Below are positions 39,590 to 44,140 of a stretch of 64,000 bases of DNA, piece after piece. The stretch spans positions 32,001 to 96,000 of the forward strand of contig CAWDOY010000016.1 of NCBI GenBank assembly GCA_963803975.1, written 5' to 3'. Below the pieces are notes generated by a model, which made no database searches, was not told the DNA's origin, and saw only the letters and a list, made by a program, of their open reading frames with translations. This DNA is from an uncultured delta proteobacterium. Its GTDB lineage: Bacteria > Desulfobacterota > WTBG01 > CAIYCZ01. The stretch's first letter is position 1, and every line of letters starts with the position of its first letter. A program made the translations under genes and the position numbers.

Positions 39590-40987
39590 ATGAACGGAAA
39601 AGCTCCTGCGACAGAAGAACAGATTATTGACCGGCATATCGCAAGCTCCACAGAAGGCTTTGCCGCCCTGAAAACGATTACCGACTTCTGCTGTATCGGA
39701 TGCGGCCTGTGCGCGAGCGTATGCCCGGAAAACTCAATCAAGATCGATGATATACTGAAAAAACCGGTTCTGTCCGGGAAATGCACCCGCTGCGGGCTCT
39801 GCTACCTTGCCTGCCCGCGCAGTTTTCTTCCCCTGTCCCGGATTAATGAACACTATTTTGGCCCGGAGCAGGGCGAGGAAGAAGAGCGGCTCGGGAAATT
39901 TGTTGATTTTTTTGTCTCCCGCTCTCTTAACGAACAGATATACCGCGAAGGAACCCCCGGCGGCACAACCACGGCCCTTATCCATTTTCTCCTGGATGAG
40001 CGGCTATGTGGACGCAGCGCTTCTCACCAGAGGACGGCACCGTGATGTCCGCTACTGCATGCATCCGCAGCCGTATATCGCAACCTCGGCGGCAGAGGTG
40101 CTCGAGAGCTCCCATTCAAAATTTGAACTCAGCCCGGTGCTGGCAAAGCTTAAGGATCTGGGCAGCTATCAAAAAAGCGCTGTTGTCGGCACGCCCTGTC
40201 AGATCCTCGCTTTGCGCAAGCTCCAGGTTGTAAGCAAAGACCCGCTGCTGCGCGCGCGCATGCCGGAGCTTGCCCGGATTGCAGGGAAACTCACCGTACC
40301 AATCACCTGCGCCATCTCCATAAACTGCTTTTTAAACCATACCAGCATGGACGGGCCTACGCCTGGCTTGGCATTGATGAGCGGCAGCTCATTCGCTTTA
40401 ACGAAAACGTGTCCAAGGATCTGTACGAAAAAGCTTTTGCTGCGGGAAAAGACTGGCGCTGGTTTTTCCGCAACAACTATGTCACCGCAGACGGCTTTGA
40501 ACAGGACTATGATGTCAACGAACTTGGCGTGCGGGTGCTTCCCAGCGGCTGCCTCCTCTGCAATAACCTGATTGTGAGCAAGCAGGCTGATGCAAGCATC
40601 GGGTTTTTCGGTGCTGAGACAGGAGTTAAGGAGGTGGGCTGGAACACCATGGTAATCATGCACCCGGAGCTTAAGAAGGTTGTCGATGCAATGGTTGCGC
40701 AAGGAAAGCTTGAACGCAAACCCGTGTTGCGGGGTTACGGCAGAACACTGAGGAAAGTGCTGGAAAAGCTCATGCCGGCCCTTGATGTGATGGGCGTTGA
40801 AGGCTATCTGCAGACCGGGACATGGCGCTATCCCCGGCCGCTGCGGCTGGCAAAGGGGCCGCGCAAGACCTACATCCTCGGCCTTGAAATGCTGTACCTG
40901 GGGCAGACCATCAGGAGGAAATTTTTCACCGAGGGCCCGCTTAAAGCGCTGAAAAAGGCTGGGGCGTATATACCGACGGTGTACTAA
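39590..40987 (+). CDS. F420 hydrogenase beta-subunit (FrhB/FdhB)-like protein with N-terminal ferredoxin domain, two frameshifts
   Basis: CIGCGLCASVCP, CTRCGLCYLACP, GGTTTAL, VGTPCQI, GCLLC, ASIG; frame changes near 40000 and 40345. Confidence 0.8.
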
Positions 40988-42559: not shown

Positions 42560-42588
42560 TTGAGTTACGGATAAAAAAGGTTTATATT
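42560..42588 (+). promoter_or_regulatory. Sigma70-type promoter upstream of the Mg transporter leader
   Basis: TTGAGT-17 nt-TATATT. Confidence 0.55.
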
Positions 42589-42665
42589 TTCAACACGGTT
42601 AACTTTCTATACCGATATCTATTAGATTATCTCGAGGAGAAAAAGAATAAACCATGGAGTTAAGC

Positions 42666-42719
42666 ATGGAAGACGACCCTGCGGATACAACCTTGATCGG
42701 GAGGCACAGACTTTTATAG
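42666..42719 (+). CDS. Putative leader peptide MEDDPADTTLIGRHRLL
   Basis: GGAG RBS, 17 codons, contains the antiterminator strand. Confidence 0.6.
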   Translation: MEDDPADTTLIGRHRLL

Positions 42720-42744
42720 CATGACTATATAGGTATAGCACACC

Positions 42745-42775
42745 GCCTCCTGTATCAATACAAGGAGGCTTTTTT
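42745..42775 (+). terminator. Attenuator terminator / RBS-sequestering hairpin
   Basis: GCCTCCTGTA-TCAA-TACA(A)GGAGGC plus T6 directly before ATG 42776. Confidence 0.8.
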
Positions 42776-44140
42776 ATGAAAAATCCACTGCTCGTACCAG
42801 AGTTTCGCGAAATGCTCGCAGCAAACAATTTCGAAGAGCTGCAGAGCTTCTGCGAATCAACCCCGCCAGCAGTTGTAGCAGACTTCCTCGGAGCCATGAC
42901 TCCGCAGGAGGTGTGGGAAATACTACTCACTATATCCCCGGAAACACGCTCTCTTATTTTCAGCAGTTTTGATGAGGATGTCAGGATTGATCTGCTTGAG
43001 GTCCTGCACCATGATGAGCTCGTTGATGTTATTGCCAACCTGCCGGATGAGCAGCGGCTCAGCTTTATTCAGGAACTCCCCCTGGACATAGTAAAAAAAC
43101 TGAACTCATCTCTGCTTACGCTCCAGCCTGCAGAAGCAGCGCCGGCGCTAAAGCTTGTTGACGGCGCAACTGCACCGGCAGAGATGCGCATTCCGGCGAC
43201 CATCGAAGGTGTTGCTATCTACAACACCATCAATAGCAAGCTGCACCAGATCGACGCCATCGGGCGGCACAGCTGGATCAATGTTGTCAACCCGAAACAG
43301 GAGGAGCTGTCCTTTCTCTCCCGGCAGTTCAGTATCCCCATGGACTTTCTGATGGCATCACTTGATATTGATGAGCGGGCGCGCATCGAGGTTGAGGATG
43401 ACGCAACCCTCATCATCTTGAAAATCCCGGTCTTTGATGAAAGCAATCCTGATGTTTTATATGTTACGCTGCCCATAGGCATCATCCTGCTCAAAGACCG
43501 CATTATTACGGTATGCGCCAAGGAAACTGATATTCTCGCTGATTTTATTGATAACAAGATAAAGCATTTCTCAACCGCCAATGTTCACCGGTTTATCCTG
43601 CAGATATTTCTGCGCACCGTGCTCATGTACCTGCAGTATTTAAAGCAGATACATAACGCAAGCAACATTATCCAGAAAAAGGTCGAGCAGGCATCTAAAA
43701 ACCAGCAGCTTATCAAACTACTGAATATCGAGAAGAGCCTCGTCTACTTTACCACGTCGCTGAAATCAAACCAGCTCATGCTGGAACGGCTGCAGAAGAT
43801 GAAAATCCTGAAGATGGACGAGGAAAATGAAGACCTGTTTGAAGATATAATAACGGAGAGCAAGCAGGCAATCGAAATGGCAAACGTTTACAGTGACATC
43901 TTAAGCGGCATGATGGATGCCTTTGCCTCGATTATCTCAAATAATTTAAACATCGTGATGAAAATCCTTACCCTCATCACCATCATCCTGTCGATACCCG
44001 TGGTATTTTCCAGCCTCTACGGGATGAATGTGAAGCTGCCCTTCCAGGAATCGCCATTTGCTTTCTTAATCGTAATAGGCAGCTCTCTGGTGCTGGCGCT
44101 TATCGGCATTCTTATCTTTATCAGGAACAAATGGCTTTGA
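42776..44140 (+). CDS. corA: CorA-family Mg transporter fused to an MgtE-like N-terminal domain
   Basis: C-terminal YGMNV and two TM helices, LDIDERARIE; N-terminal helical MgtE_N-like region. Confidence 0.85.
   Translation: MKNPLLVPEFREMLAANNFEELQSFCESTPPAVVADFLGAMTPQEVWEILLTISPETRSLIFSSFDEDVRIDLLEVLHHDELVDVIANLPDEQRLSFIQELPLDIVKKLNSSLLTLQPAEAAPALKLVDGATAPAEMRIPATIEGVAIYNTINSKLHQIDAIGRHSWINVVNPKQEELSFLSRQFSIPMDFLMASLDIDERARIEVEDDATLIILKIPVFDESNPDVLYVTLPIGIILLKDRIITVCAKETDILADFIDNKIKHFSTANVHRFILQIFLRTVLMYLQYLKQIHNASNIIQKKVEQASKNQQLIKLLNIEKSLVYFTTSLKSNQLMLERLQKMKILKMDEENEDLFEDIITESKQAIEMANVYSDILSGMMDAFASIISNNLNIVMKILTLITIILSIPVVFSSLYGMNVKLPFQESPFAFLIVIGSSLVLALIGILIFIRNKWL

Follow-up and report, generated by a model that had tools for sequence, protein, structure and literature searches.

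A short acidic leader ORF and competing RNA helices upstream of an MgtE_N-CorA fusion gene in Desulfobacterota: a candidate ribosome-coupled Mg2+ attenuator

Detailed work on ribosome-based sensing of Mg2+ has so far dealt with E. coli and Salmonella (mgtL, corL, and mgtQ). In a 64,000-nucleotide stretch of contig CAWDOY010000016.1 from an uncultured delta proteobacterium (hereafter, the window), a short ORF and a hairpin precede a gene for a CorA-type transporter, raising the question of whether a comparable device operates in this unrelated anaerobic lineage. A preliminary description, made from the letters of the window, had proposed an MgtL-like leader-peptide attenuator with an intrinsic terminator. 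Taking the window together with related loci, we consider a ribosome-coupled Mg2+ attenuator of the CorA importer to be the best explanation, and one that is probable rather than certain; it would be a compact version, of about 110 nt with two short helices.

Anatomy of the leader and identity of the downstream gene

All of the elements reported in the preliminary description (promoter, ribosome-binding site, 17-codon ORF, hairpin, and T6) were recovered at their original positions on the forward strand. A predicted sigma-70-type promoter (42560–42588; 9/12 match, 17-nt spacer) has its -35 box at 42560–42565 and its -10 box at 42583–42588. The leader Shine-Dalgarno (SD) region (42654–42670, with GGAG at 42656–42659) is partly enclosed in a weak hairpin of 5 bp that also takes in the leader AUG, and the 17-codon ORF follows at 42666–42719, its conserved part being codons 1–5 (M-E-D-D-P) only. 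An in-frame ATG at 42654 would yield a 21-aa form, but it is not conserved, being followed by an in-frame stop in three related loci (L011, L013, and L038), so 42666 is the likely start. Three further strands complete the leader: an anti-anti-SD or antiterminator strand (42693–42705, core 42700–42705), an anti-SD strand with which it pairs (42745–42758), and the corA SD (42763–42769). The anti-SD strand supplies the left arm and loop of an off-state hairpin (42745–42769; -12.9 kcal/mol in ViennaRNA) whose right arm is indeed the SD of the transporter gene itself, and a T6 tract (42770–42775) follows directly. ViennaRNA also reproduced the alternative 13-bp pairing of the anti-anti-SD and anti-SD strands, with one bulge and one G-U pair (duplex -20.8 kcal/mol).

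The gene at 42776–44140 (ATG at 42776) encodes a 454-aa MgtE_N-CorA fusion with a GMN signature. The product matched the CorA family PF01544 (E 1e-53) and, at its N-terminus, MgtE_N (PF03448, E 2e-12), and its best PDB sequence matches were CorA chains (E 1.5e-32). Its score against TIGR00383 corA (124.5 bits) fell under the cut-off of 200.75 bits, and it weakly matched ZntB. The transporter is thus CorA-type with an MgtE_N domain, as one of the names first given to it implied, and is not MgtE or MgtA. The leader sits 5' of this gene, divergent from an MFS gene, and not between mgtC and mgtB. The genome (98% complete) showed no MgtE, no M-box, and no MgtA above cut-off. It holds two near-identical further corA copies, both frameshifted (G000:C38:20300-21600 and G000:C57:51400-52800) through assembly indels or as pseudogenes, and their upstream regions gave no match in a genome-wide motif scan. 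Because of these absences and the frameshifts in the other copies, the corA of the window may be the main regulated importer of the genome. Elsewhere in the window, a ferredoxin/FrhB-FdhB-like gene (39590–40987) is split across three reading frames, which suggests assembly indel errors or a decaying gene.

Support from the window by itself was modest. The fold of the 186-nt leader had a z-score of -2.07 and was equalled in 7 of 200 shuffles, the anti-SD arm found as good an upstream partner in 14 of 300 shuffles (p about 0.05), and the promoter, one of six window matches against 3.6±2.0 in shuffles, was alone not above chance. A simple terminator scan of the window did not list the leader hairpin, because the bulge extends its loop beyond the permitted length. 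An Rfam scan, as the preliminary description had suggested, gave no match in the window, Mg2+-sensor RNAs included, and none in 20 further loci (12 fusion-clade leaders and 8 others); the M-box (RF00380) was likewise found neither in the window nor in the fusion-clade leaders scanned. It was comparison with relatives that raised the leader above chance.

Conservation across the MgtE_N-CorA fusion clade

Alignment of the upstream regions of orthologues revealed that the leader ORF, anti-anti-SD, anti-SD, and corA SD recur together in 13 of the 21 loci of the fusion clade and were not found in the other 8, so the leader uORF and its pairing, which the preliminary description had expected to be conserved, are retained in these loci. 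The fusion gene was found in 13 of 41 related genomes, and the leader in 9 of those 13; the 4 fusion-carrying genomes of the class in which it was not seen all belong to one family. An independent metagenome scan yielded seven usable fusion loci, four with the leader, and the Spirochaetes fusion copy (L037) is without it. In a CorA tree of 19 rows, which leaves out L013 (split gene), L012, and L178, leader-bearing genes fell on both sides of the midpoint root, a distribution that fits an ancestral element with later losses. The closest named record was a Thermodesulfobacteriota genome (78% identity). MgtE was found in none of the 9 leader-bearing genomes and in 3 of the 4 leaderless fusion carriers, these genomes being kin and not independent. 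The mgtE genes of the class (29 loci) showed no such leader, and a general mgtE leader in the class was dropped as a candidate. The fusion corA is split or contains stops in L012 (G037) and L013 (G014); the latter retains the leader, in which residue 5 is Ser and not Pro.

The leader peptides of the clade begin with the motif M-[DE]-x-[DH]-P. Residue 2 is Asp or Glu in 13/13 leaders, residue 4 is Asp in 10/13 and His in 3/13, and Pro5 is kept in 12/13 through three synonymous codons, which bears out the proposed conserved ORF with an MgtL-like start. The conserved residues 2, 4, and 5 show synonymous third-position variation, later residues vary freely, and some leaders are only weakly acidic because six have Leu3 and three His4. 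Lengths range from 9 to 21 aa, with 10 of the 13 leaders stopping at 9–11 codons, and GGAG precedes the ORF in 11 (all except L006 and L149). Candidate promoters (8–9/12 matches) lie 54–77 nt upstream of the leader AUG in 10/13, and several minimum-energy folds have a small hairpin over the leader SD and AUG. Two details of the preliminary description do not carry over to the family. The label "Pro-poor" describes the window leader, which holds one Pro, and is contradicted as a family feature by the retention of Pro5; an Arg-rich C-terminus is not general either, given the early stops, and Arg13 of the window leader is encoded by the anti-anti-SD strand itself. In contigs of close strains, codons 7 and 8 were changed in two studies and codons 12 and 15 in one contig, with codons 1–6 unaltered. 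These contigs derive from RNA runs with a depth of 3–4 over the leader, where DNA carry-over is possible, and show no RNA ends or levels; contig X3 spans 42648–42877, and X1 and X2 do not cover the leader.

The pairing strands are conserved in position as well as in sequence. The anti-SD core is present in 13/13 leaders, and the anti-anti-SD core starts 33–37 nt past the leader AUG in 13/13 whatever the ORF length, which places it within the ORF of 3 leaders and immediately past the stop of the other 10. Pairs were counted in a shorter alignment of the leaders, because the full-leader MAFFT alignment misplaced the SD helix. The anti-anti-SD:anti-SD helix was 91.9% paired, three of its nine pairs were changed on both sides, and its covariation score of 0.221 (0.148±0.027 in shuffles) was reached in 3 of 500 shuffles. 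One column of this on-helix reads G-C in six leaders, G-U in one, and A-U in six while its SD partner is constantly G, which argues that selection keeps the on-helix specifically; the covarying sequences are kin, and the change from G-C to A-U may stem from a single event. In a strain contig, the codon-12 change converts an on-helix G-U to A-U (depth 3–4). The anti-SD:SD hairpin was 85.1% paired, with covariation matched by 76 of 500 shuffles, as expected because the SD cannot vary. In the upstream-partner test, 10 of the 13 leaders were equalled in at most 15 of 300 shuffles (the exceptions being L008, L145, and L038). Apart from the two short helices, no conserved fold emerged from the leader alignments. 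The strands for the mutually exclusive structures proposed for the window, with the anti-SD joined either to the anti-anti-SD or to the SD, are present in all 13 leaders.

The leader motif beyond the fusion clade

To evaluate the wider distribution of the leader start, we defined a strict motif (SD plus M[DE]x[DEG]P within 260 nt), which was fixed after the first 101 loci (10 matches). The usable loci numbered 170 (at least 200 bits, N-terminus present, 260 nt upstream), or 159 after duplicate removal. The motif occurred in 4 of 58 held-out metagenome loci (shuffles 0.015, reverse strand 0), one of the four, L185, being a near-repeat of L052/L053, and in 3 of 28 Bacillota loci (shuffles 0.01), a test that leaves out L289 and L290 as repeats of L082 and L092. 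Its background in the genome was 8 of 9249 short SD-led ORFs. A looser Bacillota motif matched 12 of 28 loci (shuffles 0.42) and is descriptive only, having been tuned after the strict test. A loose pattern of SD plus M[DE]xDP matched 262 of 401 genomes of the phylum, mostly at unrelated sites, and was set aside as uninformative.

In Bacillota, 6 of 28 sampled loci of this CorA clade have an M-box riboswitch 5' of the gene, and in 4 of them the leader lies between M-box and corA. The M-box stands directly 5' of an acidic leader ORF before corA at L082:1118-1282, L083:224-389, L291:1170-1334, L297:1147-1310, L300:1144-1307, L315:1137-1303, and L314:2551-2715, the leader ORF of L314 (M-D-G-S-K) falling outside the motif. 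In 20 loci picked for having leaders, 7 have an M-box; 6/28 is the unbiased figure. Because M-box riboswitches precede the same combination of leader and CorA clade, these tandems independently support Mg2+ as the signal that the leader would sense. Four Bacillota leaders (L297, L300, L303, and L083) have the same three-strand layout with other sequences, and several non-fusion leaders, e.g., L291, L294, L296, L315, L095, and L189, gave no switch in the footprint model described below.

The M-[DE]-x-[DG]-P start might be a widespread, possibly ancient, ribosome-based Mg2+ gauge and not an enterobacterial speciality, an idea that we advance tentatively, judging it a little short of an even chance. 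The outputs of such a gauge (SD hairpin, intrinsic terminator, or Rho) and the transporters it serves would vary among Desulfobacterota, Bacillota, and, probably, further phyla; stacked behind the M-box in Bacillota, it would add a second layer, so that free Mg2+ and ribosome stability are both sensed. In a literature search (full-text, with few subscription papers), neither this leader nor an M-box and leader-ORF tandem before corA was found described.

Output, proposed mechanism, and relation to known systems

The hairpin is followed by T in seven of eight nucleotides in the window, versus one to four of eight in the other 12 leaders. Because a U-tract is present in only 1 of the 13 leaders, the conserved output would be occlusion of the corA SD, i.e., translational control; the intrinsic terminator, which the preliminary description had made a defining part of the system, looks like a local, lineage-specific addition. 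A GC-rich hairpin with a U-tract overlapped by the antiterminator was seen in the window and in none of the other 12 leaders. A working terminator in this genome, and likely in this lineage only, is nonetheless plausible as a prediction, since the U-tract is unusual there (5 of 838 SD-led ORFs have at least six T in the 8 nt before the ATG) and the T6 is unchanged in X3, the strain contig that spans it. Rho is encoded in this genome, and an added Rho-dependent termination at this leader is possible. The locus would illustrate how one hairpin, on gaining a U-tract, turns translational control into transcriptional control.

From the observed anatomy, conservation, fixed spacing, covariation, and gene context, we infer leader translation, Mg2+-dependent arrest, termination at U6, and co-transcriptional (kinetic) control as follows. 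In ample Mg2+, the ribosome would pass the acidic/Pro codons 2–5, reach codon 8 or beyond, and cover the anti-anti-SD; the anti-SD would then pair with the corA SD and block initiation in all members, and in this genome the off-state hairpin with U6 would also act as an intrinsic terminator. In low Mg2+, the ribosome would pause or abort at codons 2–5 and leave the anti-anti-SD free to capture the anti-SD as it is transcribed, so that corA would be both transcribed and translated. The N-terminal acidic/Pro run is the likely sensor by analogy with E. coli MgtL, which has MEPDP as its first residues; the EPDP among them makes translation abort within six residues, an effect that is stronger when Mg2+ is low (bioRxiv 10.1101/2021.02.02.429294). 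The same report describes MgtL as acting through this abortion and not through a simple stall.

Folding with a 30-nt ribosome footprint was used to examine this logic. With the ribosome at codon 5, the on-helix formed in the nascent transcript with P of at least 0.78 in 13/13 leaders, and with the ribosome at codon 10 the anti-anti-SD was masked in all 13, a consequence of the assumed footprint size, on which masking at codon 8 or later also rests. At equilibrium, the codon-5 ribosome gave an on-helix of at least 0.5 in 9 of 13 leaders; in the full-length window leader, the off-hairpin won in every state, with an on-helix P of 0.00 for the codon-5 ribosome. Because the off-hairpin prevails at equilibrium in the complete window leader, its control would have to be co-transcriptional, which is usual for terminator attenuators. 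A second model set-up, which left out L092 and L209, gave an SD openness at codon 5 of just 0.08–0.62. The proposed rule that full translation turns the gene off and early arrest turns it on is backed by the conserved spacing, the footprint model, and the covariation.

Several other explanations share parts of this evidence. The same switch could answer to a signal other than Mg2+, such as general translation stress, EF-P or ABC-F availability, Pro-tRNA, or another divalent metal (Co, Ni, Zn, or Mn). The fusion protein lies below the TIGR00383 cut-off and resembles ZntB weakly, D/E/P-rich N-termini are reported to trigger abortion in many E. coli ORFs (bioRxiv 10.1101/2021.02.02.429294), and E. 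coli corA is reported to respond to Mn2+ as well (PMC11552253); against this, the M-box riboswitches before the same CorA clade, the GMN motif, and the MgtL-like position of the acidic/Pro motif point to Mg2+, and we regard a different signal as unlikely. Slightly less likely still is a four-strand logic of the MgtQ or trp type, in which the ORF strand would hold the anti-anti-SD in the absence of a ribosome, so that no translation and full translation would both be off and the gene would be on only if the ribosome dwells on codons 2–6. Reported mgtQ behaviour follows this logic (PMC8092293), and consistent with it, the ribosome-free SD was sequestered (P at least 0.6) in 8 of the 13 leaders, the anti-anti-SD paired upstream at P 0.44–0.84, and the D-D-P codons of L297 and L300 in Bacillota are complementary to the anti-anti-SD. 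Yet the upstream partners in the 13 fusion-clade leaders are weak and variable, a search of them for a conserved 1:2 stem found none and no single conserved partner, and the ribosome-free RNA was already on in 5 of the 13.

An RNA-only element, namely a metal-binding riboswitch or a protein-binding site to which the ORF is incidental, would accommodate the two leaders that lack a clear SD, and the small AUG-region hairpin could explain some of the base conservation; the third-position variation at codons 2, 4, and 5 beneath conserved residues, the lack of a conserved fold beyond two short helices, and the absence of an Rfam match make such an element improbable. Least probable, indeed very much so, is chance or a non-regulatory arrangement of an SD-like repeat and a constitutive hairpin. 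The weak statistics of the window alone would permit it, but it is opposed by the conservation over 13 loci, the constant spacing, the covariation, and the enrichment of the motif in held-out loci. All matches to the full leader pattern lay before corA (in 8 of 42 genomes; reversed control 0), the pattern having been built from these loci. Comparison of the sequences thus appears to have largely refuted chance already.

The attenuator proposed here was finally compared with known systems. Like MgtL (PF17059), the window leader is a short ORF before a Mg2+ importer, and E. coli MgtL is identical to it at M1, E2, D4, and P5 (M-E-P-D-P versus M-E-D-D-P); efficient leader translation is reported to repress mgtA (PMC11552253), and repression is predicted here. 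The two differ in that identities number 4 of 17, all in the first five residues, that MgtL has several Pro codons and an Arg-rich C-terminal half whereas the window leader has one Pro, and that MgtL controls the P-type ATPase gene mgtA in a Rho-dependent manner whereas SD sequestration (plus U6) would act here on a CorA fusion. No family, PF17059 included, was matched at E<=10 by the 21-aa form or by two other leaders, and a genome scan with PF17059 gave eight sub-cut-off matches, none at this locus. MgtQ of Salmonella mgtB likewise pairs an acidic short ORF with an alternative helix that removes an anti-RBS from the RBS of a Mg2+ transporter gene, and the bL31-sensitive destabilisation proposed for it (PMC8092293) has a counterpart in that bL31 is encoded in this genome. 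According to the same source, however, mgtQ is intergenic, lying between mgtC and mgtB, and translating it favours mgtB by way of a 1:2 stem, whereas the present leader lies in a 5' UTR, its full translation is predicted to repress, its Pro5 is conserved, and a conserved 1:2 stem was not found in the fusion clade. The leader would thus work like MgtL and MgtQ, but profile searches and gene context assign it to neither.

Enterobacterial CorL is also a uORF whose translation is inversely related to corA expression, but it is reported to be Rho-dependent with a three-way junction and to have few acidic or Pro residues (PMC11552253). The corA motif of Stav et al. (2019) is described as confined to Gammaproteobacteria (PMC6429828), the mgtE motif of PMC11109978 as confined to Thioalkalivibrio, and the main text and one supplement of PMC8632094 contain no Mg transporter motif. 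The M-box would share with the leader the task of tying this CorA clade to Mg2+; in Bacillota it is a separate element upstream of the leader, and it was not found in this genome. Natural variants of the leader pin down its essential parts, namely residues 2, 4, and 5 and the 33–37 nt spacing, and offer a direct way to ask if ribosome destabilisation triggered by acidic/Pro runs serves generally to sense Mg2+, also in Gram-positives, where the leader stands in tandem with the M-box.

Other features were noted around the sampled corA genes. A roughly 60-nt tandem duplication separates leader and corA in Ca. Formimonas (L082:1410-1540), and a fluoride riboswitch lies just 3' of corA at L053:2464-2535. 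Methanoregulaceae-type archaeal corA loci (L040, L044, L046, L048, and L177, and more weakly L045) share a conserved non-coding element with a hairpin about 60–110 nt upstream, which had no Rfam match in the four loci scanned and is possibly a separate regulatory RNA; L177 is a metagenome contig. Bacteroidota-type corA genes (L095, L104, L108, L195, and L213) are preceded, about 90 nt upstream, by a conserved 15-codon ORF that begins M-D-D-Y-H, with a strong hairpin by the start. Other short corA leaders with strong SDs end in two to three prolines (L189, L191, L196, L197, L198, L203, and L205; L060, L085, L099, and L103); they come from one metagenome group and Chloroflexota and may represent an EF-P-type variant.
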